This document shows, one piece after another, positions 13,982 to 39,148 of a stretch of 64,000 bases of DNA (its first letter is position 1; each line of letters begins with the position of its first letter). Origin of the DNA: an uncultured Fibrobacteraceae bacterium (lineage in GTDB: Bacteria; Krumholzibacteriota; Krumholzibacteriia; LZORAL124-64-63); the NCBI GenBank assembly GCA_964476155.1, contig CAYYYS010000013.1:910-64909 (forward strand). Reading direction: 5' to 3'. The notes under the pieces are model-generated. The model worked only from the letters and a program-made list of their open reading frames with translations. It was not told where the DNA came from and searched no databases. The translations under genes and the position numbers were made by a program.

Positions 13982-14062
13982 GGGATCTCCACAGAGGGTT
14001 GATGGACGCATTTGCCTGTCACGACGGACGTTGCGTTGGATCATGCCTCAAGAGGGGGCGGT

Positions 14063-14127
14063 TTATCCATAACAATCCACAGGTTATGCACGGGTTTTAC
14101 AGGGGGTCGTCCACAGATTGATCCACA
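14063..14127 (+). promoter_or_regulatory. Cluster of five co-oriented degenerate DnaA boxes upstream of dnaB
   Basis: TTATCCATA 14063, CAATCCACA 14073, TTATGCACG 14084, TCGTCCACA 14107, TGATCCACA 14119. Confidence 0.6.
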
Positions 14128-14224
14128 GGAAAATCGGGAGACATGTCAAAGACGGTTTGCCTTTGGTCGCCTAGGGTGTGTTAGATTCGACGACTCGGCA
14201 AACCCGTCACGCCAGAAGCAAGGA

Positions 14225-15598
14225 ATGGACGCCTTGGAACCAGAACTCAGCCGCGCCCCCCATCCCGGGCAAAGCGTCCCCGGAAACCGTCTGCCGCCCC
14301 AGAACCAGGACGCCGAGCGTGCGATCCTGGGCGCCGTCATGCTCGACAAGGACGCGCTAGGCATGGCCATGGAGACCATCCAGGTCGAAGACTTCTATCG
14401 CCTGGAGCATCGGCTCGTTTTCCAGGTCATGTGCGAGCTGTACGAGACCGACCAGGCCATCGACGGCATCACCGTCGCCGAAGAACTCGAACGGCGCGCC
14501 CAGCTGCACAAGGCCGGCGGCAACGACTACCTGGCCGACATCCTGGCCGGCACCGCGACGGCCGCCAACGTCACCTACCACGCGCGCATCGTGCGCGACA
14601 AGTCGATCCTGCGCCGGCTGATCTCCGCCAGCAGCGAGATCGCGGGCGACGCCTTCGAGGGCGCCGACGACACCGACACCATCCTCGATACCGCCCAGAC
14701 CAAGATCTACCACATCGCCGAGAACCGGCAGACCCAGTCGTTCTTTTCGGTGAAGGACGTGGTGCCCGAAACCTTCCGCCGCATCGACGAGGCTTCGCGC
14801 CAGAAGGGCGACGTCACCGGCATCGCCACCGGCTTCCAGGAACTGGACCAGCGCACCGCCGGGCTACAGAACTCGGACCTGATCATCCTCGCCGCACGGC
14901 CCTCCATGGGCAAGACAGCCCTCGCTCTGAACATCGCCTACCATGCGGCGGTCAACGAGGGGACGCCGGTCGCCTTCTTCAGCCTGGAAATGGCCAAGGA
15001 GCAGCTGTGCATGCGTCTGATTTGCGCAAGCGGCGGTTTCAACAACCACGACCTGCGCCGCGGTAAGCTCAAGGCGGAGGACTGGCCCAAGCTCACCGAG
15101 GCCTGCAGCCGCCTGTCCGACGCGCCCATCTTCATCGACGATTCGAGTGGTATCTCGGTTCTCGAGATGAAGGCCAAGGCGCGGCGTCTGAAGCAGCAGC
15201 ACGATGTCGGCCTGATCATCATCGACTACATGCAGCTGATGACCAGCACCGCGCGGGCCGAGAACCGCCAGCAGGAAATCTCGGTGATCAGTCGCAACCT
15301 CAAGGGCATGGCCAAGGATCTCGACGTGCCGGTGATGGCCCTGAGCCAGCTTTCGCGCGCGGTGGAGAGCCGTGGCGATCACAAACCGCTGTTAAGTGAT
15401 CTGCGCGAATCGGGTTCGATCGAGCAGGACGCCGATGTAGTGCTTTTCCTGTTCCGCGAGGAATATTATAAGCCCGACGACGATACGGTCCGCAACCGGG
15501 CCACCATCAATATCGGCAAGCAGCGTAACGGGCCTATCGGGCAGTTTGATCTGCACTTCCACAAGGCTTATACGCGGTTCGGGAATTTGCAGCGCTAG
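14225..15598 (+). CDS. dnaB: Replicative DNA helicase
   Basis: PPQNQDAERAILG, AARPSMGKT, FSLEM, IIDYMQL, LSQLSR, SDLRESGSIEQDAD, KQRNGP. Confidence 0.98.
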   Translation: MDALEPELSRAPHPGQSVPGNRLPPQNQDAERAILGAVMLDKDALGMAMETIQVEDFYRLEHRLVFQVMCELYETDQAIDGITVAEELERRAQLHKAGGNDYLADILAGTATAANVTYHARIVRDKSILRRLISASSEIAGDAFEGADDTDTILDTAQTKIYHIAENRQTQSFFSVKDVVPETFRRIDEASRQKGDVTGIATGFQELDQRTAGLQNSDLIILAARPSMGKTALALNIAYHAAVNEGTPVAFFSLEMAKEQLCMRLICASGGFNNHDLRRGKLKAEDWPKLTEACSRLSDAPIFIDDSSGISVLEMKAKARRLKQQHDVGLIIIDYMQLMTSTARAENRQQEISVISRNLKGMAKDLDVPVMALSQLSRAVESRGDHKPLLSDLRESGSIEQDADVVLFLFREEYYKPDDDTVRNRATINIGKQRNGPIGQFDLHFHKAYTRFGNLQR

Positions 15599-15759
15599 TG
15601 CTCTGTCAACCTTTGATCTTGGGCTTGACGAGCCCACAAGCAGCCATCTGCTGCGTTGTACCCGCTTGAATTAGCTACGGCTAGTCCTGCGCTCGTACGC
15701 CTTGCATCTGACTACTTGTGAATTCGTCAAGCCCAAGATCAAAGGTTGACAAAGCACTA
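15596..15759. mobile_element. 164-bp TA-flanked hairpin element (MITE-like), copy 1
   Basis: TA + GTGCTCTGTCAA ... TTGACAAAGCAC + TA; long arm complementarity; 27-nt core identical to 36557-36583. Confidence 0.75.
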
Positions 15760-18288
15760 GATCGAAAACCAATAAGTAAACTTAGCCAACACCCGGTTCG
15801 CGGGTTCCTGCGAAAAGAGCAGCCCCGGGTCGAACTCGTTGGTGAACCCCGGATCGCCATCGCGGAAGTCGTATGAATCGCGGCCGTGGGTCCAGACCAG
15901 GAAGAGCGTCGAGCCCGACCTGTACTCCCAGCGATAGACCAGATTCAGGTTCACCGACGCGTAACTGAAGTCGGCGTCGCTCGGATCGAAGCCGCCCTCT
16001 GTGTACGACGTGAAGTCCCGACTGCCGGGACGCGTCAGTTCCCGCGCGTTGGCGTAGCTGCCCACCGTCAGGAACGGTTGCACGTAGAGTTCGAGCGATT
16101 GGTTGCGGCTGAACAGCAGGCTGCTGCGCAGGGTGCCCTGCCAGGTGCTTTGTTTCAACTCCGCGAAGACATACGCCACGTCGCCGATACCGCCGCCGAT
16201 ATGTTCGAAGTTGCCCAGCCATTGGGCATCGGAGAAGCCTTCCTCATATCCCACATAGACCTGGTGATGGACGCGATCACCCTGCTGCCAGGTCATCCCC
16301 GCTTCGTAGGACCGGTCCCACCAGCCGGAGGCGCCGCCGTCGTTATCGATCTGCAGGTGATAGCGGATGTCTTTGCGATAGTCGGTGCTCACGCCGATCC
16401 AGGTGGCGCGGTTTCGGGACGTCTCCAGGAGTGGTCCGCGGACGCCGTTATGTGAGCGCGTTTCGTAGGAGTTCAATCCCTCGCCATGGACCATGCAACC
16501 GGCGAATATGGTCCAGAACCCGCGGGTCTGCATCATACCGCTCAGGACACTACCCAGGGAGCGGGGGATTCCACTGCTATAGGACCACAAGACCCGGTCC
16601 GGATCGTTCGGGTCGGTTTGTGTGCGACCTGCGTAGAGCCAGCTGCGTCGCATGTAGAGTTGGGCGTGGCCCGATCGCCAGAAGGACGTTTCGTTTTCAG
16701 CATTGTGGGTGTAGGACACCTCGGCCTCGGCTTCGAGCTCGTCCGGCGCGAAGAGCAGGCCGATGTCGTTGGGATCGAGCTGGTCGTGTTCCCATGATCC
16801 TCCGGCCGAGGCGCGCCAGTCGCCGCCGGTCTTGGCGAACTCCAGGGAGCCGCCGGTGCCGCGCTTGTTGGTGGTGCGCGGTTCGGGGTCCAGGAAACCG
16901 GGATGGGGATCGACCAGCGTGTGCACGAAGGACCCGCGGACCTCGTAGTTGCGGTCGGCCAGGTCCCACTCGAAGTCGAGACCGCTGGTGAAGCCGTCGC
17001 GGCGGAAGCGGGTGGGCGTCATGACGAAACTGTCGGGATCGCGCAGCACGGCGGTCTGCATGAAGTTGAAGCGGGCGGTTCCGTCGGGGTTCTCCAGCCC
17101 GCCGCGAAAGATGGCGTAGAAGGCCTGGTCGTTGCCCGCCTCGAAGACGTTGTGGGCGCGGCCCGGCGTGGTGATGTCCGTAAACGCGATCAGGCCGGCG
17201 AGCGACAGGCCGCCGCCGGTCTTGCCGGTGAGCTTGCTCGCCAGGCGGATGCGCGCGTTCTCGTCGCCGGTGCCGATCCGGCGCGAATAGAACAGGTTGA
17301 AGTCCGGATGCTCGAAGTACCGCGCGCCCTCCACGAAGAAGGGGCGCTTTTCCTCGTAGTAGGTCTCGTAGGGGGTGAGGTTCAGTTGGGCGGGGTCGGC
17401 CTCCACCTGGCCGAAGTCGGGCTGGATGGTGGCGTTGAGGGTGATGTTGGCGGTCAGGCCGTACTTGATGTCCGCGCCCAGACTCTGGAAGTGCTGCACG
17501 TCGTCGTCGGGACCGGCGATGGCGGGATCGGTCAGGCTTTGCACCACGTAGGGCGTCACTTCGAGCTGGCGGGGGCTGCCCAGTCCCGACAGGCCGTTCA
17601 GGGTGCCGAAACGGCTGACGAAGCCGCTCAACTCGCGCTCGTAGCACACCCAGCCGGTGTCTTCGCCGCGGCCGTGTAGCCAGCGGTAGACCTGCAGGCC
17701 CCAGGTCTGTTCGTCGCCGGCGCGGAAGCGGATCGACGAGAAGGGGATGCGAAATTCGGCATACCAGCCGTGTGAGTCGGTGCTGGTCTCCACTTGCCAG
17801 ACGGCGTCCCAGTTCCAGTCGCGGCGACCGTCGTCGAACATGTAGGCGTCGGCGACCACGCCATGGAGGTTGGTGCGGAAGTTGTAACCGGTCGTGCGGT
17901 CATGGTAGGGGTCGATGTAGATGCTGATTATGTCGGAATTGTGGATGTCGTCCCGGCGCGACAGGGCACTCGAGACCAGGGACATGTCCGCTTCGGGACA
18001 GTCGACGCCGAAGTAGATGGCATCATCGTCGTACACGACCCTGAAGGTGGTCTGGACGCTGGGTTCGCCGCCGCGCTCGGGGTCGAACTGGCGAAAATCG
18101 CCGCCTTCCTGCGCGCCTTCCCAGGCGGAATCGTGAAGGTGACCGTCGACCCGGATCGACCCGTTGGGGACCCGCTCCGCGTAGATGTTGCGGTGGGGTG
18201 TGTAGATCGGCGCCGGCCCGTCGTCGGCGGTACCGAAGGTCGGGATGAGCAGGGCGACGAGGAGAAATGTCGCGGCGGCAGTGCGCAT
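15757..18288 (-). CDS. CBM9-like/DUF5916 outer-membrane protein
   Basis: Signal peptide; IRVDGHLHDSAW, AEFRIPFSSIRF, PDFGQVEAD, EEKRPFFVEG, LFYSRRIG; aromatic C-terminus FTYWFSI. Confidence 0.8.
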   Translation of the reverse strand: MRTAAATFLLVALLIPTFGTADDGPAPIYTPHRNIYAERVPNGSIRVDGHLHDSAWEGAQEGGDFRQFDPERGGEPSVQTTFRVVYDDDAIYFGVDCPEADMSLVSSALSRRDDIHNSDIISIYIDPYHDRTTGYNFRTNLHGVVADAYMFDDGRRDWNWDAVWQVETSTDSHGWYAEFRIPFSSIRFRAGDEQTWGLQVYRWLHGRGEDTGWVCYERELSGFVSRFGTLNGLSGLGSPRQLEVTPYVVQSLTDPAIAGPDDDVQHFQSLGADIKYGLTANITLNATIQPDFGQVEADPAQLNLTPYETYYEEKRPFFVEGARYFEHPDFNLFYSRRIGTGDENARIRLASKLTGKTGGGLSLAGLIAFTDITTPGRAHNVFEAGNDQAFYAIFRGGLENPDGTARFNFMQTAVLRDPDSFVMTPTRFRRDGFTSGLDFEWDLADRNYEVRGSFVHTLVDPHPGFLDPEPRTTNKRGTGGSLEFAKTGGDWRASAGGSWEHDQLDPNDIGLLFAPDELEAEAEVSYTHNAENETSFWRSGHAQLYMRRSWLYAGRTQTDPNDPDRVLWSYSSGIPRSLGSVLSGMMQTRGFWTIFAGCMVHGEGLNSYETRSHNGVRGPLLETSRNRATWIGVSTDYRKDIRYHLQIDNDGGASGWWDRSYEAGMTWQQGDRVHHQVYVGYEEGFSDAQWLGNFEHIGGGIGDVAYVFAELKQSTWQGTLRSSLLFSRNQSLELYVQPFLTVGSYANARELTRPGSRDFTSYTEGGFDPSDADFSYASVNLNLVYRWEYRSGSTLFLVWTHGRDSYDFRDGDPGFTNEFDPGLLFSQEPANRVLAKFTYWFSI

Positions 18289-21093: not shown

Positions 21094-23247
21094 TCACCGC
21101 ACCAAAGACAGCTTGCGTGACACGGTGCGTCCCGCCGAAGTGATCCTCACCAGGTAGGCACCGCTCGACGCCGACCGTCCGGCATCGTCGCGCCCGTCCC
21201 ACACGAGCGTGTGCGTTCCCGGCTCATAGGCCAAACCGGCGGCCAGGCTCCGTACACGGCGCCCGGCGGTCGACCAGACGGTCACGTCAACCGGTGCGGC
21301 GGCGTCCAGTGTGAAGCGGATCTCCGCGCGGGGGTTGCCCGGGTTGGGGTACACCGCGAGGTTGAAGGCGGCGGCCGGCGCCTCGCCGACGGCCACGTTC
21401 GTGTCCAGGTTCAGCCAGATGGGATTGGTGTAGGCCCGGTGGCCGGCGTCGCCGTCGGTGGTGACGCATTCGGCCCGCAAGGCGCACCAGCCCAGGGGCA
21501 GCACGCCGGCCAGATCCAGCGACGCGTTGCCGGCCAGGCCCTGGCCCTGGCCCGATGGCGCCAGGCTCAGCAGCGAGATCTTGTTTCCCGGTTCCAGCAG
21601 CCACACGGTGACCGATGCGATTTCCCCGAACTCCGGCAGCGAAGCCCAGCGCAGGCGCAGTGTGCCGGGGTGGTCGGGGTGCGCGAGGACGTCGCCACCG
21701 ATGGCCGTGTCGTTCGCGTCGTACCAGTCGCCGTCGTTGTCGCCGTCCAGCCCGATTTCCAGGAATGGGCCGTCGGTAACGACCGAGCGGCCGGCCGTGA
21801 AGGCGGCCAGCAGGTCGACGGTGGGCGGCACCTCGCCGGACCGCGCGCCGGGGACGTAAACCACCGTTTGCACCTTGCCCATGGCGTTGTCATCGGCGTA
21901 GTCGTCCACGCTCATGTGACTGGAGAAGTTGAAATCGCCGTGGGCATCGCTGCCGCCGGAGAGGAAGAGCTTGCGTGGCGAACCGGAGGCCAGGTCGGTC
22001 TGCAGCAGGTCATCCCACAGGGCGATGCCGGTCAGCAGGCCGTTGGGGTATGGATCGTCGGACGGGTTGCCGGCGTCGAAGTCGCTCCAGGGGTCGTACT
22101 GGTCGGTGGAGTAGACCGTGCGGCGTGTGTTGAAGACCTCCACACCGCGGAAGGACGGTCGGGTGAGAGCCGCGACCAGGTCTTCGTCGCCCCAGACCGC
22201 GCCGTTGATGCCCCAGTCGTAGCCCAGGACTTCGGCACTCAGATCGTCGATGGGATGGGCCGCGTAGGCGAAGCCGCCGCCGAGGGCGTCGAGGCCGCCG
22301 GTCACCGATGGTGACACGGGACGCTCGCCCGGCGCGCCCGAGTCGGGGGAATGGACGTAGGGGCCGTCGTAGAAGAGGCAGTGCAGGGTCTTTTCCCAGG
22401 AATCCCCGTCCACCGACGCCAGATTGATTTCCACGCCACGGTGGAGCCGGAAGTCACTGTCGGAAAGCAGGGCGGCATCCACGCCCAGAGCTCCCCAGGC
22501 GCCGCCCTCGGCGACCACGTCGCGGTAGGTCGTATGAATGCCGGTCTCGTCCTGCAGGGTCCATTCCCATTGCCCGGTGGCGTAGGAGTAGTCGCCGTCG
22601 CCGGTCTCGTCCAGGTCGCAGCTGTGGTCGGTGGCGGTCAGCCAGTGCAGCCCCATGGCCACGGCGGTCTCGCGGACCGCGGGCAAGGGGGCGCCCCACT
22701 CGTAGATGTTGTTGGTGAACATGGTGTGGTAGTGGGTGTCGCCGCCGAACCAGTCGTCGGGCCAGGGGAAGGGGCCGCTGCCCACGTGCACGCGCAGGGT
22801 GCGCGATTCCGTGTAGTTGAACCAGTCGTCGCGATAGTAGACCTGTACCTCGATCTGGATGGCGTCGCCGGCCCCGTAGCCCAGGTTGGCGGGGGTCAGG
22901 AGCGTGCCGTTCGGCAGGGAGGGGTGGCCTTCGGTCACCTTGGTGATCCAGGTCCAGTAGTTGTCTTCGCTGGCGTCGTTGCCGATGGTCTCGTCGCCGT
23001 AATCGTGATTCCAGATCAGTGTTGAGCCGGCGGTGACGTCCCAGGCGCGGATCCAGTGCAGGTCACGGATATCGTCTACGTCGCAGTCCTTGAGGATGAC
23101 CGTCAACGGGATGGGGGTCTGGGCGTCGATCACTCGCCAGGGGGCATCCATGATGAAGTCCTTGGCGAGCGTGTTTTCGTATTTGTCCGATGCGGGGACG
23201 GCGGTTGACAAGAGCAGCAGGGCGATACATATCAGGGGCTTGTTCAC
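21094..23247 (-). CDS. Secreted PHP-family (CehA/McbA-like) metallohydrolase with FlgD/T9SS-like C-terminal domain
   Basis: Signal peptide; GDTHYHT, ATDH, GGSDAH; tail YPNPGNP...VWDGRDDAG...SGAY...RKLSLVR. Confidence 0.78.
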   Translation of the reverse strand: MNKPLICIALLLLSTAVPASDKYENTLAKDFIMDAPWRVIDAQTPIPLTVILKDCDVDDIRDLHWIRAWDVTAGSTLIWNHDYGDETIGNDASEDNYWTWITKVTEGHPSLPNGTLLTPANLGYGAGDAIQIEVQVYYRDDWFNYTESRTLRVHVGSGPFPWPDDWFGGDTHYHTMFTNNIYEWGAPLPAVRETAVAMGLHWLTATDHSCDLDETGDGDYSYATGQWEWTLQDETGIHTTYRDVVAEGGAWGALGVDAALLSDSDFRLHRGVEINLASVDGDSWEKTLHCLFYDGPYVHSPDSGAPGERPVSPSVTGGLDALGGGFAYAAHPIDDLSAEVLGYDWGINGAVWGDEDLVAALTRPSFRGVEVFNTRRTVYSTDQYDPWSDFDAGNPSDDPYPNGLLTGIALWDDLLQTDLASGSPRKLFLSGGSDAHGDFNFSSHMSVDDYADDNAMGKVQTVVYVPGARSGEVPPTVDLLAAFTAGRSVVTDGPFLEIGLDGDNDGDWYDANDTAIGGDVLAHPDHPGTLRLRWASLPEFGEIASVTVWLLEPGNKISLLSLAPSGQGQGLAGNASLDLAGVLPLGWCALRAECVTTDGDAGHRAYTNPIWLNLDTNVAVGEAPAAAFNLAVYPNPGNPRAEIRFTLDAAAPVDVTVWSTAGRRVRSLAAGLAYEPGTHTLVWDGRDDAGRSASSGAYLVRITSAGRTVSRKLSLVR

Positions 23248-26066: not shown

Positions 26067-26187
26067 CCCACATCACCCTGGGGTGATGTGGGCGCAAAGT
26101 CATATCAAAAACAGGGCCTCTGGGGGCCGCAGGCAGCACTTCACATCAAAAATGGGGTACCACGTGGTACCGTGGGTGTGGATAAGT
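26067..26187 (-). repeat. Intergenic repeat copy B (DnaA box + palindrome + extra module + 12-bp hairpin)
   Basis: 26144-26187 is the exact reverse complement of 566-609; hairpin CCCACATCACCC-TG-GGGTGATGTGGG at 26067-26092 is shared with copy C. Confidence 0.93.
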
Positions 26188-26274
26188 ACCATCTCTTCGG
26201 CCCGGTTGTTATCTGAAGGCACATCAGGTAGCATTGGAATAAAGTCTCATCAGCCGGATCGACGGGAGAGAACC

Positions 26275-28488
26275 ATGAGACGACTAGTATTGCTCCTGCT
26301 CACCAATCTCATATTCGTAACCCTCTCCGCAGCCGGCGACTTCACCACCGGTGAGACCAGCATCACCCGCCTCTCCGACGACGAACGCGCGGTCATTCTC
26401 GGCGGCTTTCGTTTCCCCACAGGACCGGTTTCCGTGCGCGATTATCCCCGAGTCGGCTCCCTACCGCCCGCCCTCGACTGGCGTGACACACCAATCGGTT
26501 CCTACGTCAGCGACGTGCGTTGGCAGGGAGTTTGCGGCTCGTGTTGGGCCTTCACCGCCATGGCAGCTTTCGAATCGGCGCTGATGGTCGCCACCGACAC
26601 GCCGGACGTCGATCCCGACCTGTCCGAACAGTACATCCTGTCCTGCAACTGGGACGCGGGTACCTGCCAAGGCGGTTGGCTGGAAGGCGCGCTCGAATTC
26701 CTGCGACTGGCCGGCGCGCCGACCGAAGCCTGCTTCGTCTATATGGGGAACGATCAGATCCCCTGTCGCACGAGTTGCCACACGACCCTGGACCTGCTCG
26801 AGAAGGTCGATGACTGGTGGTTCGTCACCGCCGGATTTGCAGACCAGGTTGCCATCAAGACCGCCCTGCAGGACGGTCCGCTGTCGACGGCCTTGATGAT
26901 CCACGACAATTTCATGGGCTACACAGGGGGCATCTACGATGCCTACGGCAGTCCAGAAACCGGCGACGGCCACACCCTGCTGCTGGTGGGATACGACGAC
27001 ACCCAACAATGCTGGATCGCCAAGAACAGCTGGGGCACGGATTGGGGCGAGGACGGATTCTGTCGCATCGCCTACGACGACGGCTGCGGTTTCGCGGCCT
27101 ACACGCTGGCTTGTACCTACGATCCGCTATGGGAACCGAGCGTCGCCTGGTCACCGGCCGAGATCAACGCCGGCGAGCCTGTCGCCATCACTTACGATGC
27201 CACCGGTCGGCCCCTGCAGGGCCTCGGCGGCCTCCTGATCCACTCGGGCCACGACGACTGGGAGGGCATCACCGACACGCCCCTGACCCAGACGGATACG
27301 GACAACTGGTCGGTCACGATCACGCCGCCGATCGGGGCGCAGTCGCTGGAGTTCGTCTTCACCGACGGGCTCGACACCTGGGACAACAACGGCGGTGTCG
27401 ACTGGATCGTGCCCTTGGCCGGTTCCACGCCCGACTTTGTCATGGATGGATTGTTGGACGCGGTCGCGACACCCCTGGCGACAAACGGCACGCTGACCTT
27501 ATGGAGCGCATTCGCCGGGTCCGAGCTCTACGTGGCCATCCAGGATGAGAGAGTTCCGCGCACCGAAGATCTTTTCATCCTGGTGGCGACCGATCCCTAC
27601 GAATATCGCCCGGCTACCTGGGCCAAGGCCGGCAGCACGATGAACTGGGACTGGTTCCTGGCCGCCGAAGTCGACAACGGCTGGTCCGGCTGGTTCGATT
27701 TCGGGGAGACCGTGCAGGAGGGCGCCGCGTACCGGCGATCCAACGGGGATGTTCTCGAAGGGACGCTCGACCTCGATATTCTGATGCCGGGGCGCGCGCC
27801 CCGGGAGCTATGGTTCGCCGCGGCCGCCTACGAAACCCACAGCGGTGGTACCCTGATGCGCCAGGCGCCCGCCGGCAACAGCGACAACACGATCACGGAA
27901 TCGGAGATGATTCGCGAGGTCATCGTGGCGAACGAGCGGGTCTTGTTGGATGTGCGTCGCACGAGTGTCGGTGTGGAGATCGCCTGGGTCTTGGCCGAGC
28001 CCATGGTCGGCGAATTGAGTCTGACCGCCGCGGCTGGTGAGACCGGCTGGCTGGTTCCCTATATCACGGACGACGGTCTGCATTACTACGGCGAAGACCG
28101 TTCGGCCGCGGCACGCGGCGGTGTCGTGATCACCTATCGCCTTCAGGGCCGACGTTACGACGGCACCTCATATCTGCTGGCGGAGGGGGACACGCCAGGA
28201 CGGGGCACGGGGGCGCTGCGTCTCGATCCCGTCTTCCCCAATCCGGCCAACCCGGGCCTGGACGTTTGTTTTACTCTGGCCGTTCCCGGTCGGGTCACCT
28301 TACGCATTCTCGATGCGCGCGGACGTCTGGTGAACACGCTATTGGACGAACCACGCTCGGTCGGCGCCCATGCCGTGAGCTGGGATGGTCGGACGCATGA
28401 CGGGGTGCCCGCGGCCTCGGGCGTTTATTTCGCGCAGGTCTTGAGCGGTGATTTTACGCAGACACGCAAGCTGACGCTGGCCCGGTGA
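26275..28488 (+). CDS. Secreted papain-family (C1A) cysteine peptidase with starch-binding-like modules and FlgD/T9SS-like tail
   Basis: QGVCGSCWAF, GHTLLLVGY, WIAKNSWG; WDNNGGVDW CBM-like motif; FPNPANP...WDGR...SGVYF...RKLTLAR. Confidence 0.85.
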   Translation: MRRLVLLLLTNLIFVTLSAAGDFTTGETSITRLSDDERAVILGGFRFPTGPVSVRDYPRVGSLPPALDWRDTPIGSYVSDVRWQGVCGSCWAFTAMAAFESALMVATDTPDVDPDLSEQYILSCNWDAGTCQGGWLEGALEFLRLAGAPTEACFVYMGNDQIPCRTSCHTTLDLLEKVDDWWFVTAGFADQVAIKTALQDGPLSTALMIHDNFMGYTGGIYDAYGSPETGDGHTLLLVGYDDTQQCWIAKNSWGTDWGEDGFCRIAYDDGCGFAAYTLACTYDPLWEPSVAWSPAEINAGEPVAITYDATGRPLQGLGGLLIHSGHDDWEGITDTPLTQTDTDNWSVTITPPIGAQSLEFVFTDGLDTWDNNGGVDWIVPLAGSTPDFVMDGLLDAVATPLATNGTLTLWSAFAGSELYVAIQDERVPRTEDLFILVATDPYEYRPATWAKAGSTMNWDWFLAAEVDNGWSGWFDFGETVQEGAAYRRSNGDVLEGTLDLDILMPGRAPRELWFAAAAYETHSGGTLMRQAPAGNSDNTITESEMIREVIVANERVLLDVRRTSVGVEIAWVLAEPMVGELSLTAAAGETGWLVPYITDDGLHYYGEDRSAAARGGVVITYRLQGRRYDGTSYLLAEGDTPGRGTGALRLDPVFPNPANPGLDVCFTLAVPGRVTLRILDARGRLVNTLLDEPRSVGAHAVSWDGRTHDGVPAASGVYFAQVLSGDFTQTRKLTLAR

Positions 28489-32695: not shown

Positions 32696-35600
32696 ATGCA
32701 TCGTCATATCCGCTTATGTGCCGCCATGCTGTTCGTTCTCATGATCGGTCCGGCCCTGCCGGTCGCTGCCGCCGACCAGCCGACGGTCACTTCCTATCTC
32801 GAACGCGCCCTCGACGACGCAACCTATCCCCATCGCGACGATGCCGGCCGTCTGGCCGTATGGGTCTACTTCCGCGACAAGGGCCTTGACGGTGCGGCTC
32901 TGGGCGCCGCCCTGGACCAGGCCGAGACCGACCTGTCAGACCGCGCCGCCCGCCGGCGCGCCAAGATGAAAACGGTCAAGGGCGAGCGGCTGGTCGACAG
33001 CACCGACCTGCACGTACACCGTTCCTACATAGACGCCGTCGCGGCGACCGGCGCCCATCCGCGCCGCGAAAGCCGCTGGCTCAACGCGGCCAGCTTCGAC
33101 GCCACCTCCGCGCAGATTGCGGCCATCGCCACCCTGCCGCAGGTCATCAAGGTCGACCTGGTGAACATGTTCCGTCGCGACGAGATGGCCGTGTTACCCG
33201 AGGACGTGGCCGCCCGCGAGGCCCGCAACGCCGAACTGCGCGCCGCCAAGGCCACCGCCTGGACCGTCGACTACGGCGGCAACCTGGCCGCCATGGAGCA
33301 GGTCAACGTGCCGGCCCTGCACGACGAGGGCGTGACCGGCGAGGGCGTGCTGATCGGCATGCTCGACACGGGCTTCCGCACCTCGCATAACGCGCTGACG
33401 CCCATCCCGATCATCGCCGAGTGGGACTTCATCAACAACGACGGCGAGGTGGACAACGAGGCCGGCGATCCCAGCAACTCCAACGATCACGGCACCAAGA
33501 CCATGTCCACGGCCATGGGCTACGAGCCCGGTCAACACGTGGCGCCGGCCTTCGGTGCCTCGGTCGTGCTGGCCAAGACCGAGGACGTGTCCCAGGAGAT
33601 CCCCATCGAGGAGGACAACTGGGTTGCGGGCATCGAGTGGCTCGACACCTTCGGCATCGACGTGGCCAGCAGCTCGTTGGGCTACCTCGACTGGTTCACC
33701 TGGGCCGACATGGACGGCAACACCGCCGCCTGCACCATCGCCGCGGACCTGGCCGTGGGCAAAGGCATCGTGGTCTGCAACTCAGCCGGCAACGAACGCG
33801 GCTCGAGCTGGAACCACATCATCGCGCCCGCCGACGGCGACAGCGTGATCGCCGTGGGCGCGGTTACTTCCAGCGGCAGCTATTCCTACTTCTCTTCGCC
33901 CGGTCCGAGTTATGACGGGCGCATCAAGCCCGACGTCTGCGCCCTGGGTTCGAGCAACCACGTGGTGAGCTCCACCAGCGATACGGCCTACACGTCGGCT
34001 TCGGGCACGTCTTTCTCCTGTCCGCTGACCGCGGGCGTGGCCGCGCTGGTTCTTTCGCGCGTGCCGTCGCTGACCCCCATGCAGGTGCGCGACGCCCTGC
34101 GCGAGACCGCCTCGCAGGCGACGACGCCGAACAACGACTACGGCTGGGGCATTATCGACGCCCACGCCGCGGCCCATTATTTCGGCGCCAACATCGTCCA
34201 CGACTCCCTGTCCGACACCGAGGACACGACCGGCCCCTACACCGTGACCTGCACCATCACCGATCGGGTCGCCCTCGACACCGATCATCTTTTCCTCAAC
34301 TGGCGTATCGATGGTGGCGGGTGGTTCAGCGAGTTGCTGAGTTCCCTGGGCGGCGACGACTACGCGGCGTCGATTACCGGCCAACCCGCCGGCACCGACG
34401 TGGAGTACTACTTGTCGGCTCTCGACGCTTTGGCCATCACCTCGACCCTGCCCCTGGACGCTCCCGTGTCGGCCTTCGCCTTTCACGTGGGGCCCGACGT
34501 CTCCGCTCCCGTGGTCACGCACCAGCCCCTGGGCGATCTGCCTCTGTTGACCTGGCCGGGAACGCTGAACGTCACCGCCGTCGACAACATCGGTATCGCC
34601 TCTGTTGTCGTGTCCTTTGACCACAACGGTGTGCCCCAGCCCGATTTCCCCCTGGTCGACCAGGGCGACGACCTCTACCTGGCCGACATCCCGGTGCTGG
34701 TGGAGCAGGTGCAGGCCGGCGACACGTTCACCTATTCGATCCTGGTGACCGACATGGGCACGGTGCCCAACACCGTCACGGTCGGTCCCTTCTCCCTCAT
34801 CGTCATCGACGCCCTGGGCGTGGTCCTGGTGATCAACGACAGCGCCGGCAAGGGAGATCCCGAGCCCAAACTAGGCATCGACAAGAGGCCGCTGCCGGCG
34901 CCGACGAAGACCCAGAAGGCTCCGGCCAACGACATCGAACGCTGGCTGAACGAAACGGGCTACGTGGTCACGCTGGTGGACGCCGCGTCCCTCCAGGCCA
35001 CGGACTTCGACAACAAGCAGTTCGCCATACTCTCTTCCGGCGACAACCTCTCGCCCGTGGCCGGCGCCGGCCTGCGCACCCTGGTGCGCGATTGGGTCCT
35101 GGCCGGCGGCAAGTTGTTCATAGAAGGCGGCGAAACGGGCTACGATGCCGAGTCGTCGCCGGGCTATCCCGGTTTCGCGGCCGACGTGCTGCATGTGTCC
35201 GACTGGCGCAGCGACAGCGCGGGCGACCTGCAGGTCGTTGCGGGCATGGGCGGACATTCGTTGCTCAACACGCCCCACGTCGTCCCCGCAACCCTCGATA
35301 TTACTTATGGCAATTACGGCGATCAGGACGCCATGGATCCGTCCCTCGACGCCTACATGGTGATGGAGACGGCGAACTACACGGGCGCGGGTGGCATCAT
35401 CGTCTTCGACGACAATCCGGCGCCCCAGTCGGCCCAGGTCGTCAACTTCTGCTTCAACCTGGCGGCCGTGGCCGACACCACCGTGGCGCGGCATCTGGTC
35501 GAGAACGCGGCGGCTTTCCTGATGGCGTCCGAGGGCGTGCCGACCGCGTCGATATCCGGTATGGTCGCCATGCTGTCCGGCGACGTCGTCTTTCCTGTCG

Positions 35601-36490
35601 AAGGCGCACTCGTCAGCGCCGGCGCCGGCCTGGAGACGCTTACCAACCAGGACGGCTACTACATCCTGGATAATCTCTACTCCGGCACCTACCAGCTGGT
35701 CGCCAGCAAGGCGACCTACACGACCGTCACCGAGACGATCGAGGTCGGGGAGGGGGAAGCCGCCTACCTGGATTTCTGGCTCGATCCCACCACGACCGTC
35801 GAGTACACCGAGAGTACGCCGATCGCCATCCCGGACAGCGACGCGAACGGCATCACTTCGATCATCACTGTCGCGGAAACCAATGCTGTCTCGGCCGTGT
35901 CCGTGCCCATCGACATCACCCACACCTGGATCGGCGATCTGATCGCCGAGTTGACCTCGCCCCTGGGCACCACCGTGCGCCTGCACAATCGCACAGGCAG
36001 TTCGTCGGACGACATCCTCGGCATCTACGGCGACACTCTCGTTCCCGACGGACCGGGCGTCCTGCTCGACTTCACGGGCGAGAACCCGGCCGGCGACTGG
36101 ACCCTGTTCATCTCGGACAACGTCGGCTCGGATACCGGCACGCTCAACAGTTGGGGTCTCATCCTCGTTCTGCCCGACCCGAACACGGCTGTCGACGACG
36201 CCACGCCCCTGGTCACGCGCCTGCTGGGCAACACGCCCAACCCGTTCAATCCGCGCACGGTGATCGCCTTCGACCTGTCGCGGGCGACGGCACCACGCCT
36301 GTCCGTCTTCGACCTGCGCGGCCGCGAAGTGCGCCGCCTGCTCGACGGGCAGACCCTGACGGCCGGCCGACACCAGGTCGTATGGGACGGTCGCGACGGC
36401 ACGGGCCGCGCCCTGGCGAGCGGACTCTACCTGTATCGCTTCAGGGCCGATGGGGTGACCGAGGAAAGGAAGATGTTGCTGACGCGGTAG
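32696..36490 (+). CDS. Secreted S8 (subtilisin-like) serine peptidase with P-domain and FlgD/T9SS-like tail
   Basis: Triad LDTG, DHGT, GTSFSCP; P-domain DITHTWIGDL...GDWTLFISD; tail PNPFNP...VWDGRD...SGLY...RKMLLTR. Confidence 0.92.
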   Translation: MHRHIRLCAAMLFVLMIGPALPVAAADQPTVTSYLERALDDATYPHRDDAGRLAVWVYFRDKGLDGAALGAALDQAETDLSDRAARRRAKMKTVKGERLVDSTDLHVHRSYIDAVAATGAHPRRESRWLNAASFDATSAQIAAIATLPQVIKVDLVNMFRRDEMAVLPEDVAAREARNAELRAAKATAWTVDYGGNLAAMEQVNVPALHDEGVTGEGVLIGMLDTGFRTSHNALTPIPIIAEWDFINNDGEVDNEAGDPSNSNDHGTKTMSTAMGYEPGQHVAPAFGASVVLAKTEDVSQEIPIEEDNWVAGIEWLDTFGIDVASSSLGYLDWFTWADMDGNTAACTIAADLAVGKGIVVCNSAGNERGSSWNHIIAPADGDSVIAVGAVTSSGSYSYFSSPGPSYDGRIKPDVCALGSSNHVVSSTSDTAYTSASGTSFSCPLTAGVAALVLSRVPSLTPMQVRDALRETASQATTPNNDYGWGIIDAHAAAHYFGANIVHDSLSDTEDTTGPYTVTCTITDRVALDTDHLFLNWRIDGGGWFSELLSSLGGDDYAASITGQPAGTDVEYYLSALDALAITSTLPLDAPVSAFAFHVGPDVSAPVVTHQPLGDLPLLTWPGTLNVTAVDNIGIASVVVSFDHNGVPQPDFPLVDQGDDLYLADIPVLVEQVQAGDTFTYSILVTDMGTVPNTVTVGPFSLIVIDALGVVLVINDSAGKGDPEPKLGIDKRPLPAPTKTQKAPANDIERWLNETGYVVTLVDAASLQATDFDNKQFAILSSGDNLSPVAGAGLRTLVRDWVLAGGKLFIEGGETGYDAESSPGYPGFAADVLHVSDWRSDSAGDLQVVAGMGGHSLLNTPHVVPATLDITYGNYGDQDAMDPSLDAYMVMETANYTGAGGIIVFDDNPAPQSAQVVNFCFNLAAVADTTVARHLVENAAAFLMASEGVPTASISGMVAMLSGDVVFPVEGALVSAGAGLETLTNQDGYYILDNLYSGTYQLVASKATYTTVTETIEVGEGEAAYLDFWLDPTTTVEYTESTPIAIPDSDANGITSIITVAETNAVSAVSVPIDITHTWIGDLIAELTSPLGTTVRLHNRTGSSSDDILGIYGDTLVPDGPGVLLDFTGENPAGDWTLFISDNVGSDTGTLNSWGLILVLPDPNTAVDDATPLVTRLLGNTPNPFNPRTVIAFDLSRATAPRLSVFDLRGREVRRLLDGQTLTAGRHQVVWDGRDGTGRALASGLYLYRFRADGVTEERKMLLTR

Positions 36491-36651
36491 TGCTCTGTCA
36501 AACAGGAAATTGGGGGTTGGCGGGCTCACGAGCGGCCATCTGCGGCGTTGCACTCCCTTGAATTAGCTACGGCTAGTCCTGCGGTCGCGCGTCTTGCATC
36601 TGAGCACTCGTGAGCCCGCCAACCCCCAATTTCCTGTTTGACAGAACACTA
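36488..36651. mobile_element. 164-bp TA-flanked hairpin element (MITE-like), copy 2
   Basis: TA + GTGCTCTGTCAA ... TTGACAGAACAC + TA; about 43-bp stem with one mismatch; same length and core as 15596-15759. Confidence 0.75.
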
Positions 36652-36683
36652 GCGCCTCGCGACTGGTCCGAGTTGATATCCAG

Positions 36684-36711
36684 AAGCGCCGGGTCCCTGG
36701 ACCCGGCGCTT
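36684..36711. terminator. GC-rich hairpin between convergent S8 and mazF genes
   Basis: AAGCGCCGGGTCC-CT-GGACCCGGCGCTT; only short T runs. Confidence 0.4.
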
Positions 36712-36716
36712 GGTGG

Positions 36717-37436: not shown

Positions 37437-37506
37437 TCCGTGTGGAGCCACACAAGCAAACCCCGTGCGTGAATCTTGCTCAGTCGTCTTTTGCTCGGTC
37501 CCCCCT

Positions 37507-37535
37507 TTGACCTCCCGCCCCGTTCCCGCTATTCT
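37507..37535 (+). promoter_or_regulatory. Sigma70-type promoter for radA
   Basis: TTGACC (37507-37512), 17-bp spacer, TATTCT (37530-37535). Confidence 0.6.
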
Positions 37536-37562
37536 CCCCGGACCCGAATGGAAAGGCGATTC

Positions 37563-38990
37563 ATGGCCAAGCAGACCACGCGTTACGTTTGCGGCAATTG
37601 CGGACACGATGAAGTTCGCTGGATGGGGCAATGCCCCCAGTGTCACGAATGGAACGCCATGACAGAAATCAAGCTGGGCAAGGTCGAAGGCAAGGGCCGC
37701 GGCACCGGTTTCGCCCGCGGACGGCCCAAGCGGACCGACACCGAGGCCGTGCAGCCGGTTTCCCTGGCCGATATCACCTCGGCGAGCCGCGACCGTCTGT
37801 CGGTCGAGCCGGAGGAGATCGCCCGCGTGCTGGGTGGCGGACTGGTGGTCGGTTCGGTGGTGCTGTTGGGTGGCGAGCCCGGCGTGGGCAAGTCGACGCT
37901 GCTGACCGGTCTGGCCCTGAGTTGGGTGAGCCAGGGTGTTCGTGTGCTCTATGTGGCGGGAGAGGAGTCGCCGCCGCAGATCCGCATACGCGCCGAGCGG
38001 CTCGGTTTCGACGCCAAGCGGACCGACGGCTTCCACATCCTGAACGAAGTCGACCTGGAAAAACTGTTGGCGGCCCTGTACGCCGATCGGGAGGCCCACC
38101 CCGGGCCGGTCGTGCTGATCGCCGATTCCATCCAGACCCTGCACAGCTCCGAGATCGACGCCTTCCCCGGCAGTGTCAGCCAGATCCGCTATTGCGGCGG
38201 CGTGCTGGCCAACTTCGCGCGATCATCGGGATGTCCAGTCTTCCTGGTGGGACACGTCACCAAGAGCGGCGACCTGGCGGGACCCAAGCTCCTCGAACAC
38301 ATGGTCGATACGGTTCTCTACTTCGAAGGTGACGGCGGCGGACCCGTGCGCATGGTCCGCGCGGTAAAAAACCGCTTCGGCGCCACCGGCGAGCTGGCCA
38401 TTCTGGAGATGCGCGGCGAGGGGTTGGTGCCGGTGGACGAGGCCGGCGCGCTGTTCCTGAGCGGACGGCGCGGCGAGGAACCCGGGGCCGCGGTGTGCGC
38501 GGTTCGCAACGGGTCACGCACTTTCCTGGTGGAAGTGCAGGCCCTGGTGTCTCCCACGCGTTACGGCACCCCCCAACGGGTGGTCCAGGGCGTGGACAGC
38601 AAGCGGGTGGCCCTGCTGGCGGCCATTCTCGAAAAGCGCGCGGGACTGGACCTGGCCGGCTGCGACATCTTCGTCAAGGTGGCCGGCGGAGCGCGCCTCG
38701 ATGATCCCGGCGCCGACCTGGCCATCGTCACGGCCCTGGCGTCGTCGCTGCGCGAGATCCCGGTGCCCATGGACACGCTGGTCATGGGCGAGGTCGGCCT
38801 GACCGGAGACGTTCGCGGCGTGAGCGATCGCTCGGGACGATTGCGCGAGGCGTCCCGTCACGGCTTCAAGCGCGCCGTGATCGCGCGGGTCAAGCCCGAC
38901 CGCAAGACCGAACAGGGTGTGGCCGTGACCGCCGTGACCACCGTCGACGAGGCGGTGGCCCTGGCCCTAGCCCGGATTATTCATGACTGA
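37563..38990 (+). CDS. radA: DNA repair protein RadA/Sms
   Basis: CGNCG...CPQCHEW zinc finger, GGEPGVGKST, DSIQT, KNRFG; last 6 codons come from the downstream hairpin element. Confidence 0.97.
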   Translation: MAKQTTRYVCGNCGHDEVRWMGQCPQCHEWNAMTEIKLGKVEGKGRGTGFARGRPKRTDTEAVQPVSLADITSASRDRLSVEPEEIARVLGGGLVVGSVVLLGGEPGVGKSTLLTGLALSWVSQGVRVLYVAGEESPPQIRIRAERLGFDAKRTDGFHILNEVDLEKLLAALYADREAHPGPVVLIADSIQTLHSSEIDAFPGSVSQIRYCGGVLANFARSSGCPVFLVGHVTKSGDLAGPKLLEHMVDTVLYFEGDGGGPVRMVRAVKNRFGATGELAILEMRGEGLVPVDEAGALFLSGRRGEEPGAAVCAVRNGSRTFLVEVQALVSPTRYGTPQRVVQGVDSKRVALLAAILEKRAGLDLAGCDIFVKVAGGARLDDPGADLAIVTALASSLREIPVPMDTLVMGEVGLTGDVRGVSDRSGRLREASRHGFKRAVIARVKPDRKTEQGVAVTAVTTVDEAVALALARIIHD

Positions 38991-39148
38991 GCTACTGCGG
39001 TCGCGTATGTTCAAGCCTGACAGCACGTCCTCGGCTTTGCTACCTCAACGTGCCTACGGGCACGCCTCGGTCCCAAAACCTTGCGGACGCCCTGTCAGGC
39101 TTGAACATACACAACCTCGCTACGCTCAGTCATGAATAATCCGGGCTA
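38968..39148. mobile_element. 181-bp TA-flanked hairpin element inserted in the 3' end of radA
   Basis: Perfect 25-bp outer IR (38968-38992 / 39124-39148), perfect 19-bp inner IR (39005-39023 / 39092-39110), apical CGTGCC-TACG-GGCACG. Confidence 0.75.

Follow-up and report, generated by a model that had tools for sequence, protein, structure and literature searches.

An apparently undescribed family of TA-flanked palindromic elements, probably mobile DNA, in which the pairing of the arms outlasts their sequence

The palindrome studied here, copy B, is probably a one-module member of a widespread group of non-autonomous, TA-flanked palindromic mobile DNA elements of MITE-like character, which would be moved in trans and in which the fold has been kept. 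It lies in the window, that is, the whole stretch of 64,000 nucleotides analysed from contig CAYYYS010000013.1 of an uncultured Fibrobacteraceae bacterium. Throughout the family all helices evolve through Watson-Crick double changes, and a few unpaired loop nucleotides stay constant.

Copies of the element in the window

Copy B has no coding capacity, and approximately 10-20 near-identical copies of it are present per host population, at different loci. Its limits are fixed by contigs with differing flanks, which break exactly at 36488 and 36652 in three DNA metagenomes. In marine metagenomes 36488-36652 is covered 10-20x as deeply as its flanks, and many contigs break off precisely at either end. 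Most simply, the TA at each end is a duplicated target, so that the body measures 160 bp. The features of copy B and of the other two family members in the window are as follows.

36488..36651, + strand: copy B, 164 bp including both flanking TA; body 36490-36649 (160 bp)
36488..36489, no strand: left TA, a putative target duplication, judging by the TA flanks across the family and the empty site of copy A
36490..36501, + strand: left terminal inverted repeat GTGCTCTGTCAA, shared without change by copies A and B, with near-identical versions at loci L011, L119 and L120
36502..36519, + strand: left 18-nt variable arm segment ACAGGAAATTGGGGGTTG, differing from copy A at 9 positions, each of them compensated in 36620-36637
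36518..36621, + strand: hairpin module (lower stem, middle helix, upper stem, apical hairpin), the family-wide unit; covariance model of the family (R1) 99.1 bits, E 3.6e-21
36544..36549, + strand: 5' side of the middle internal loop, GGCGTT; G30, T31 and T32 invariant in alignment A4; present in modules of all clades
36557..36583, + strand: 27-nt core, an asymmetric internal loop (5' UUGA / 5' CCUGC) around the apical hairpin
36562-36577, + strand: apical hairpin AUUAGC-UACG-GCUAGU with a conserved T.G pair, inside the 27-nt core
36591..36595, + strand: 3' side of the middle internal loop, GTCTT (family consensus GCCTNG); in alignment A4, G74 and C75 nearly invariant, C76 and T77 invariant
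36620..36637, + strand: right 18-nt variable arm segment, exactly reverse-complementary to 36502-36519
36638..36649, + strand: right terminal inverted repeat TTGACAGAACAC, with one C/A mismatch against the left repeat
36650..36651, no strand: right TA, a putative target duplication, which with C36649 reads TAG on the minus strand
15596..15759, + strand: copy A, in the same orientation as copy B; R1 92.3 bits
38968..39148, + strand: third, divergent family member, 181 bp; R1 37.1 bits, E 1.9e-6 (whole window, filters off)

The initial annotation had described two 164-bp copies with common ends and a common 27-nt core, and both were found where it had placed them, at 36488-36651 and 15596-15759. 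The core has exactly two exact occurrences in the window (0 expected), and the 14-nt end TAGTGCTCTGTCAA has four, one per end per copy (0.18 expected). Both copies fold into a stem of ~45 bp with an apical domain of ~70 nt, with a fold z of -12.8 to -15.1 for RNA on either strand and of -13.0 for DNA. The 18-nt arms, CCTTTGATCTTGGGCTTG in copy A and ACAGGAAATTGGGGGTTG in copy B, had been said to differ at nine positions with compensation at each; this can be read directly (9/9), and both segments are the exact reverse complement of their own right-arm segment. Further compensated differences between the two copies are found in the next 13 bp of the stem (three) and in the upper stem (one).

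Copy B begins in the stop codon of an S8 peptidase gene, as had also been annotated: the TAG at 36488-36490, made up of the left TA and G36490, ends ORF 32696-36490, the product of which is a Peptidase_S8 / P-domain / FlgD_ig protein in a Pfam domain scan. Copy A is placed between dnaB (14012-15598, + strand) and a convergent DUF5916/CBM9 gene (15757-18288, - strand) and supplies a TAG to both. The third member (38968-39148) is positioned after a radA-like ORF and has a 25-bp perfect terminal inverted repeat, TA flanks, the apex GUGCC-UACG-GGCAC and a fold z of -15.6; its depth is 2-8x, with break points at 38967-38971 and 39143-39145.

Architecture and distribution of the family

At least 118 genome loci with the core 20-mer were found in MAGs of Campylobacterales, Gammaproteobacteria and Fibrobacteraceae, all of them picked by an exact 20-mer from the 27-nt core, that is, by the internal core and not by the ends. 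The family spans Campylobacterota, Gammaproteobacteria and Fibrobacterota, together with the organism of the window. In Campylobacterales MAGs many copies lie at contig ends. The family is built from a hairpin module of ~100 nt between terminal inverted repeats of ~30 bp and occurs in two size classes, a short form of ~164 nt with one module and a long form of ~265 nt with two modules placed head-to-head, which meet around a CCC-NNN-GGG centre. R1 matches the second arm of the long forms on the opposite strand with 40-85 bits, and the apex of this second arm is the reverse complement of the core. Short forms retain either module. Copies A and B both end in the terminal inverted repeats GTGCTCTGTCAA and TTGACAGAACAC, and paired ends are found in all complete members of the family.

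A new structured-element family had been proposed as a candidate from the two copies, and when a described family was sought against this proposal none was found. Rfam 15 gave nothing on the element, either for the window at gathering score or for seven related loci of long and short form at E<=1. Plasmid and viral-contig collections held no copies, and a full-text search of the literature for the core string gave no match. This large family is apparently undescribed.

Covariation and conserved loops

That the hairpin is conserved, and not the arm sequence, was the central claim of the initial annotation, and in a larger alignment the covariation is very strong. Arm-to-arm identity between elements is 30%. 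In the outer 28 bp, 96.4% of positions form Watson-Crick pairs with the opposite arm of the same element, compared with 30% when the arms of other elements are substituted. Among 115 distinct modules, 89.7% of cells are paired, compared with 34-44% when the partners are slid, and double changes are present in 37 of 37 module pairs. The module covariation score is 0.788, against 0.173, and was reached by none of 500 shuffles. As for the 27-nt core, its conservation stands for copies A and B, in which it is identical, but the part that is constant family-wide is the unpaired loops and not the whole core. The invariance of the 27-nt core across the family is partly a search artefact, due to the exact 20-mer used for selection, and modules found later by covariance model carry other apical stems, with a loop of 2-4 nt that is variable outside the exact-core sample.

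Insertion at TA and overlap with stop codons

Copies of the A/B type occupy at least four unrelated loci, and a metagenome scan with a narrow pattern returned two loci with further copies of the B type, both starting at a gac-TAG stop. In related strains the site of copy A is empty and reads GCG-CTAG-ATC (contigs in runs X5, X6 and X7). The empty-site contigs join 15594 to 15757, so that 162 nt are skipped, with four ambiguous letters, CTAG; the filled site has CTAG at both junctions. The empty site of copy A fits a 2-bp TA duplication; it fits equally well if the element carries a terminal TA of its own and went in next to a TA, the two cases being indistinguishable at this site. TA, the portion of the target that the copies share, is found at both ends in about 40 of the 63 complete copies, with CTAG as the commonest context in GC-rich hosts, and among the targets reconstructed for GC-rich copies with clean TA flanks CTAG (5 of 11) is followed by TTAG, GTAG and CTAA. 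At L092 and L044 neighbouring elements have a single TA in common. One side is without a clean TA at L019, L040 and L059, and the AT-rich AACCTGAG subfamily has no clean TA at all. At syntenic Campylobacterales loci, filled and empty, the intergenic regions are too diverged for alignment.

The element body begins with G and ends with C, so that wherever it inserts TAG is read outward on either strand. The stop is therefore kept when the element enters the TA of a stop codon or a CTAG shared by two convergent genes. The overlap of the TAG with gene stops is therefore explained by TA targeting together with element ends that read TAG on both strands.

Proposed mechanism and search for a mover

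If copy B is a mobile element of the kind we favour, a TA-targeting enzyme would move it in trans. Its target and ends suggest that the mover is most likely a DDE transposase of the IS630/Tc1-mariner kind, which would act on ends of ~12-14 bp. The internal hairpin may have been kept since the element must form, or be repaired through, an intrastrand DNA fold. Such a fold might be a cruciform, or a hairpin formed where one strand is exposed, and the conserved loops may be the places at which proteins make contact. We propose that, because of such a need, each lineage that still transposes has kept perfect pairing of its arms. The binding of double-stranded terminal repeats by a transposase does not by itself explain the compensatory evolution of the arms or the conserved loops far in the interior.

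An autonomous partner was not found in the window or among 120 loci chosen by the internal core and not by the ends. No gene lies between the arms at any of these loci, with inner-arm matches sought up to 8 kb away. Searches for matches to the outer 16-nt end gave no second terminal-repeat pair; an outer-end match at L069 was rejected as a chance match inside a gene. No recurrent neighbouring gene emerged from the clustering of neighbouring ORFs, and a Pfam scan of 45 of the 47 ORFs in the window gave no transposase domain.

Comparison with described elements

The element resembles MITEs in having terminal inverted repeats, a putative TA duplication when compared with the empty site, and a small, non-coding sequence present at multiple loci. 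Ordinary MITEs have conserved ends and an interior that drifts, whereas in the present family the helices have been fully turned over by compensated changes and the interior loops are conserved.

The Correia elements (CREE/NEMIS) of Neisseria are gene-less, multi-copy elements of 100-155 bp with TA-flanked terminal inverted repeats. We know of no identified transposase for them. The Correia elements and the present family are alike in being small and gene-less, in having long and short variants and a long hairpin, in lying near gene ends and in their TA-flanked repeats; variants of the Correia repeat are given in PMC5039591. However, Correia elements are confined to Neisseria and are without the nested one-/two-module architecture, whereas the present family is found in several phyla. 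Homology between the two was rejected: with filters off, R1 finds nothing inside a genuine gonococcal copy (L121, 301-456), its best score in this locus (7.7 bits) lying outside the Correia element, and the ends differ from the 26-bp Correia repeat TATAGTGGATTAA. Only short strings in Correia elements resemble the middle loops of the present family (CGGCGTTGCC..CGCCTTAGC). The Correia consensus used for comparison is 97% identical to real gonococcal copies.

The IS630 and Tc1-mariner elements and their MITEs (ISY100; Stowaway of plants) share with the present family insertion at TA, short terminal inverted repeats and non-autonomous derivatives capable of forming a hairpin; they differ in that no transposase gene with the ends of the present family was found. 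Elements of the IS630 family duplicate TA, and IS630 prefers CTAG (PMC2170065, with the title of Tenzen and Ohtsubo 1991, which it cites). The present element likewise has a TA target with a putative 2-bp duplication, and CTAG is preferred.

Compensated evolution in a mobile repeat has a precedent in bcr1 of the Bacillus cereus group, a transcribed mobile repeat of ~155 bp in which compensatory changes maintain a cruciform-like fold (PMC3184786). It differs in having 5-bp direct repeats, in its restriction to one species group and in its interpretation at the RNA level, and it has no sequence relation to the present family.

Several other candidates were rejected. The core contains a 9-mer, GGCUAGUCC, which also occurs in the nexus of the SpCas9 tracrRNA. 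An omega or guide RNA suggested by GGCUAGUCC was discarded on account of its other structural context, the lack of a match to HEARO or any other such RNA, and the lack of an associated nuclease gene; in addition, the apical stem is unconserved outside the exact-core sample. No covariance-model match was obtained to the RNA families of Rfam, including HEARO/omega RNA, group II intron domains and ribozymes. An integron attC site needs RYYYAAC ... GTTRRRY boxes, which terminate an imperfect palindrome; copy A has TGTCAAC/GTTGACA at its ends, whereas copy B has TGTCAAA/TTTGACA. Furthermore, there is no cassette array, and copies adjoin housekeeping genes. The anatomy does not fit a retron, a dif/Xer site, a promoter or an intrinsic terminator.

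Competing explanations

It is improbable that the element is a mobile structured non-coding RNA gene, in which the module would be a guide or scaffold RNA, a regulatory sRNA or an RNase III-processed 3'-UTR element and the covariation would reflect RNA structure. The strength of the covariation and the conserved internal loops would agree with such a gene, as would the apical hairpin, in which, read in core orientation, C-G closes a UACG tetraloop and a U.G pair is conserved. All four window-type copies (4/4) lie directly after a same-strand ORF, so they would be co-transcribed, and metatranscriptome contigs do contain the element, indicating that transcription, at least as read-through, occurs. 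However, the depth of the element relative to its flanks in RNA, taken from assembled contigs that carry neither strand nor ends, does not exceed the copy-number ratio in DNA. The variable helices make almost no use of G-U pairs (about 1.5% of cells), A:C exceeds G:T by 104 to 45 in the module stems read in sense orientation, and the terminal stem is without asymmetry (G:T 26, A:C 20). The orientation to flanking genes is unbiased among the 63 copies examined (++ 8, -- 9, +- 10, -+ 8), and the long forms have the same loops on opposite strands. No site resembling a promoter or a terminator lies in the element, no Rfam family was found at E<=1, and the apical loop varies (2-4 nt) outside the exact-core sample. 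A generic structured RNA gene was rejected on the little use of G-U, the presence of the structure on both strands, and the lack of orientation bias and of a promoter-like site. The element folds equally well under DNA parameters, and folding energies are ambiguous as to strand, as 36 elements fold better on the plus strand and 26, all short forms among them, on the minus strand. The covariation involves Watson-Crick pairs alone, treats the two strands alike and does not depend on how genes are oriented, all of which speaks against an RNA gene on one strand; a hairpin or cruciform at the level of DNA, or copying from arm to arm, is favoured instead. The set of inferences drawn initially, namely RNA structure, single-stranded DNA structure or arm-to-arm copying, is supported overall, with RNA as the least supported of the three.

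There is also little probability that the element is similar to REPs and REPINs and travels as single-stranded DNA through the action of a single-copy HUH (Y1) transposase such as a RAYT or an IS200/IS605 TnpA. Such an enzyme would recognise the module in its folded state, unpaired bases included, and cleave beside TA, so that the flanking TA would be target and element end rather than a duplication. A single-strand mechanism of this kind would suit an element that has TA at its own end and inserts 3' of TA, and the empty site is compatible with it and with a 2-bp duplication alike. Selection on folding would be explained directly, and hairpin formation is thought to be essential for the mobility of REPs and REPINs (bioRxiv 10.1101/2021.07.10.451892). 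These too are extragenic palindromes that are long-lived within lineages and occur as singlets and inverted doublets, much as the modules here occur singly or as inverted pairs. The conserved unpaired or mismatched bases of the modules, the strictly Watson-Crick, strand-symmetric pairing and the sense module on each strand of the long forms also point in this direction. Against it, terminal inverted repeats of ~30 bp with symmetric TA flanks are typical of DDE elements and not of IS200/IS605 or REP. REP units measure 20-40 bp and have a GTAG or CGTC head (PMC3733652); the module, at ~100 nt, is longer and has no head of this kind. REP families are species-specific whereas the present family spans phyla, and no Y1 or RAYT gene was seen beside any copy or in the window. 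That the palindromes are due to chance or are an assembly artefact, and no feature of a family, has a practically negligible probability. Assembly errors can create palindromes, and nothing else speaks for this; the same structure in independent assemblies and runs, at no fewer than 118 genome loci and in a population with an empty-site allele, already refutes it.

More speculatively, and with a rather low probability, the hairpin module may be the substrate of a mobilisation system that has yet to be described, in which an enzyme or host machine reads a folded single DNA strand and inserts it at TA. The loops read in such a system would be 5'-TTGA/5'-CCTNC and 5'-GCGTT/5'-GCCTNG. If true, this would explain why the helices change only by Watson-Crick double changes, why the long forms have one sense module per strand and why the same loops persist across phyla. 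The family would then be a hybrid of MITEs of the terminal-inverted-repeat type and single-strand elements that are read as hairpins (IS200/IS605, REPINs, attC).

Significance

REP, Correia, ERIC and similar small palindromic repeats are decades-old knowledge. To our knowledge, neither the mover nor the reason for the retention of the hairpin has been established for most of them. With hundreds of copies in hosts of 30% to 64% GC, the family described here represents an unusually clean natural experiment, in which the compensated rewriting of every helix, the few untouched loop nucleotides and the one-/two-hairpin modularity pinpoint the nucleotides that are read. This pattern suggests that the folded DNA form matters. 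The element breaks assemblies, and annotators of marine and vent metagenomes are likely to meet it often. It also alters gene ends, which it supplies with stop codons or new C-terminal tails.

The hairpin repeat in the window

The window carries two copies of a 164-bp non-coding hairpin repeat, both in the same orientation:

15596-15759, copy A, between dnaB and a convergent DUF5916/CBM9 gene
36488-36651, copy B, starting in the stop codon of a subtilase gene

The initial annotation had described two such copies with shared ends and a 27-nt core, and this was confirmed. The end sequence, TAGTGCTCTGTCAA ... TTGACA(G/A)A(A/G)CACTA, is common to both; the window contains it at four sites where 0.18 would be expected, and the identical core at the hairpin top at two where none would be. 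In the 18-nt segments beyond the left ends the copies mismatch at 9 of 18 positions, and in each copy the left segment has its exact reverse complement in the right arm, so that all nine differences are compensated, as had been claimed; four additional differences deeper in the stem are compensated too. Both copies fold into a stem of ~45 bp with a ~70-nt capping domain (z -12.8 to -15.1 for RNA folding of either strand, -13.0 with DNA parameters). At 36604 copy B has a G where metagenome loci L119 and L120 and most metagenome contigs have a C; the C restores a lower-stem base pair, and the window copy thus bears a fresh unpaired mutation.

Copy B does begin, as annotated, with the three bases TAG that form the stop codon of a 1264-aa subtilase (Peptidase_S8, P-domain, FlgD_ig). 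This protein (32696-36490), a papain-type protein (26083-28485) and one of unknown type (21097-23247) are large and secreted-looking, with FlgD_ig at the C-terminus, a sorting-domain-like ending typical of the FCB group. Along with the Fibrobacteraceae relative L011, this gives a hint of the lineage to which the window belongs. A GC-rich inverted repeat without a T run, AGCGCCGGGTCCCTGGACCCGGCGCT (36682-36713), lies 30 nt 3' of copy B and may be the hairpin that originally closed the protease gene.

A mobile, modular family

In three marine DNA metagenomes holding the window's genome, 36488-36652 has 10-20 times the depth of its flanks, and contigs with many different flanks end exactly at 36488 and 36652. 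One metagenome assembly contains two more copies of the copy B type at other loci, both starting within a TAG that terminates an upstream ORF. The element is a mobile repeat. The two ends of copy A give TAG to both neighbouring genes. In metagenome runs X5, X6 and X7, contigs of slightly diverged relatives join 15594 straight to 15757, skipping 162 nt, with the four letters CTAG assignable to either side. This gives an empty site of GCG-CTAG-ATC, in which dnaB and the convergent gene overlap in a single CTAG that is the stop codon for both.

The flank portion common to all copies is TA, and the element body has G as its first base and C as its last; each end therefore reads TAG outward, which explains the overlap with stop codons. 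In this 64% GC genome the TA of a stop codon is among the few targets that can be tolerated, and the stop is restored on insertion. Among 63 copies of the wider family, nine left ends and nine right ends overlap a stop codon that ends an ORF of 80 aa or more, so the effect is symmetric and not strand-bound. At two loci (L092 ~6040-6060, L044 5800-5815) members of different subfamilies lie end to end with one shared TA, an arrangement that would result from insertion of one into the TA beside the other. The intergenic region after pgk-tpiA, which holds an element in three Campylobacterales genomes (L072, L116, L064; at least two subfamilies) and none in a fourth (L085 5185-5383), looks like a repeatedly used insertion region.

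The family was sampled with a 20-mer taken from the core, scanned against a single genome of each species. Among the matches listed there are more than 118 loci, mainly in Campylobacterales MAGs (Sulfurovum, Sulfurimonas, Sulfurospirillum and others), with others in Gammaproteobacteria (e.g. Thiodiazotropha) and in one Fibrobacteraceae MAG, whose copy shares its ends with those in the window. Many matches lie at contig ends, as expected of a repeat. The 20-mer also occurs within coding regions without hairpin context (L014 1652-1671, L048 4959-4978); in 596 Gb about one such match is expected by chance. A Group II intron domain V/VI (Rfam RF00029, 48 bits) on the minus strand of a gammaproteobacterial MAG locus (L081 4839-4908), 3 kb from an element, is probably unrelated.

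Complete copies fall into two size classes, ~164 nt, as in the window, and ~265 nt. In the long form a ~30-bp basal stem bears a pair of long arms and, at the centre, a very small CCC-NNN-GGG hairpin; the first-arm apex of this form is the reverse complement of the core. When a covariance model was built on the arm that bears the core (24 gapless copies), it also matched the second arm, in opposite-strand orientation (40-85 bits). The long form is thus one ~100-nt hairpin module present twice, head-to-head, with terminal inverted repeats on either side. In short forms one or other module is kept (L021, L031). The model also detects a further window member:

38968-39148, 181 bp, third, divergent TA-flanked palindromic element (37 bits, E 1.9e-6, filters off)

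This element has TA flanks and a 25-bp perfect terminal repeat, TAGCCCGGATTATTCATGACTGAGC, and is multi-copy. A variant in four metagenome runs lacks 86 nt of the apical hairpin part (39002-39087); it is a deletion derivative, itself present in the population. A radA-like ORF (37476-38990) runs 20 nt into the element, where a TGA ends it; through the insertion the protein has thus acquired a new C-terminal tail.

Conservation of pairing

That the hairpin rather than the arm sequence is kept, as first proposed from two copies, is supported by the larger family. Over 57 elements with distinct arms, left arms are only 30% identical and every position shows all four pair types; in the outer 28 bp Watson-Crick pairing reaches 96.4% when each arm is set against its own partner and only 30% against other elements' arms. 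Covariation, the test that the initial annotation set for a larger alignment, is clearly present in the module. In a gapless alignment of 24 sequences 88.7% of cells pair (32-43% with slid partners), with double-sided changes in 29 of 37 pairs; in 115 distinct modules the figures are 89.7% (34-44%) and 37 of 37, with a covariation score of 0.788 against 0.173 for shuffles (0/500). Because the 115-module alignment was fitted to the model, it is biased towards the structure; neither the gapless MAFFT alignment nor the independent count anchored on the ends of 57 elements shares this bias.

The apical stem also covaries in modules found without the exact core (AUUAGC/GCUAGU, AUUAAC/GUUAGU, AGCUAC/GUAGCU, UGCAGC/GCUGCA, AUUCCC/GGGAGU; GUGCC/GGCAC in the third window member), and the apical loop varies from 2 to 4 nt. 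The invariance of the 27-mer is therefore partly a product of the exact-word search. The constant nucleotides are unpaired, in an asymmetric internal loop beneath the apical hairpin (5'-UUGA / 5'-CCUNC) and in a middle loop (5'-(Y)GCGUU / 5'-GCCUNG).

Several observations speak against an RNA gene of the usual one-strand kind. Hardly any use is made of G-U pairs (~1.5% of cells in the variable helices); the terminal stem has few G:T and equally few A:C (26 and 20), and A:C exceeds G:T (104 and 45) in module stems when these are read in the orientation of the module itself. The element occurs in both orientations relative to neighbouring genes (++ 8, -- 9, convergent 10, divergent 8), the conserved loops of long forms lie on opposite strands, and no promoter-like or terminator-like site was found within it. 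It is present in metatranscriptome contigs, which carry no strand information, with no excess over DNA copy number. The constraint is thus strand-symmetric Watson-Crick pairing. This fits a DNA hairpin or cruciform obligatory during mobilisation, or arm-to-arm templated repair, and, with less economy, a requirement for RNA hairpins from both strands; our data cannot separate the three.

Mobilisation and relation to known elements

No candidate for the mover was found: no gene lies between the arms at any locus examined, neither a recurrent neighbour gene nor a second pair of element ends was found among the loci, and the plasmid and viral collections yielded no copies. Of 47 window ORFs, the 45 scanned are housekeeping genes without a transposase domain. 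IS630/Tc1-mariner elements duplicate TA, and IS630 prefers CTAG (PMC2170065). Because the TA flanks of the element and its CTAG preference in GC-rich hosts match this behaviour, we infer, as a working view, that an enzyme of the IS630/Tc1-mariner type may mobilise it. Such a mover does not by itself explain the compensated arms and the conserved interior loops. A single-strand enzyme that reads the hairpin in the style of REPIN/RAYT or IS200/IS605 is therefore a live rival. In these data TA duplication looks the same as insertion beside TA by an element that itself ends in TA.

The closest element in kind is the Correia element of Neisseria, which likewise has TA flanks, terminal repeats, two size classes and a hairpin, and for which no transposase is known. 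The family covariance model gave no match on real gonococcal Correia copies, which makes this an analogy and not membership. The 2.17-Mb 'plasmid' record that contains one of these copies (L121 301-456; PLSDB NZ_CP119140.1) is a Neisseria gonorrhoeae chromosome with at least 40 Correia elements. For a mobile repeat that evolves by compensated changes, bcr1 of Bacillus sets a precedent (PMC3184786). No Rfam 15 family matches the element, and a full-text literature search for the core string returned no paper, the catalogue of a recent large MITE survey (PMC11602168) lying outside the comparison. The Correia result and the lack of an Rfam match are in line with the suggested candidate new structured-element family.

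The original observation is real, and the evidence supports how it was read. The element fits best among MITE-like, TA-targeting palindromic elements, where it is distinctive in its modular one- or two-hairpin architecture, its cross-phylum distribution and its loop-only sequence conservation. On present evidence it calls for no new principle; its value is as an unusually informative case for finding out what reads hairpins of this kind.
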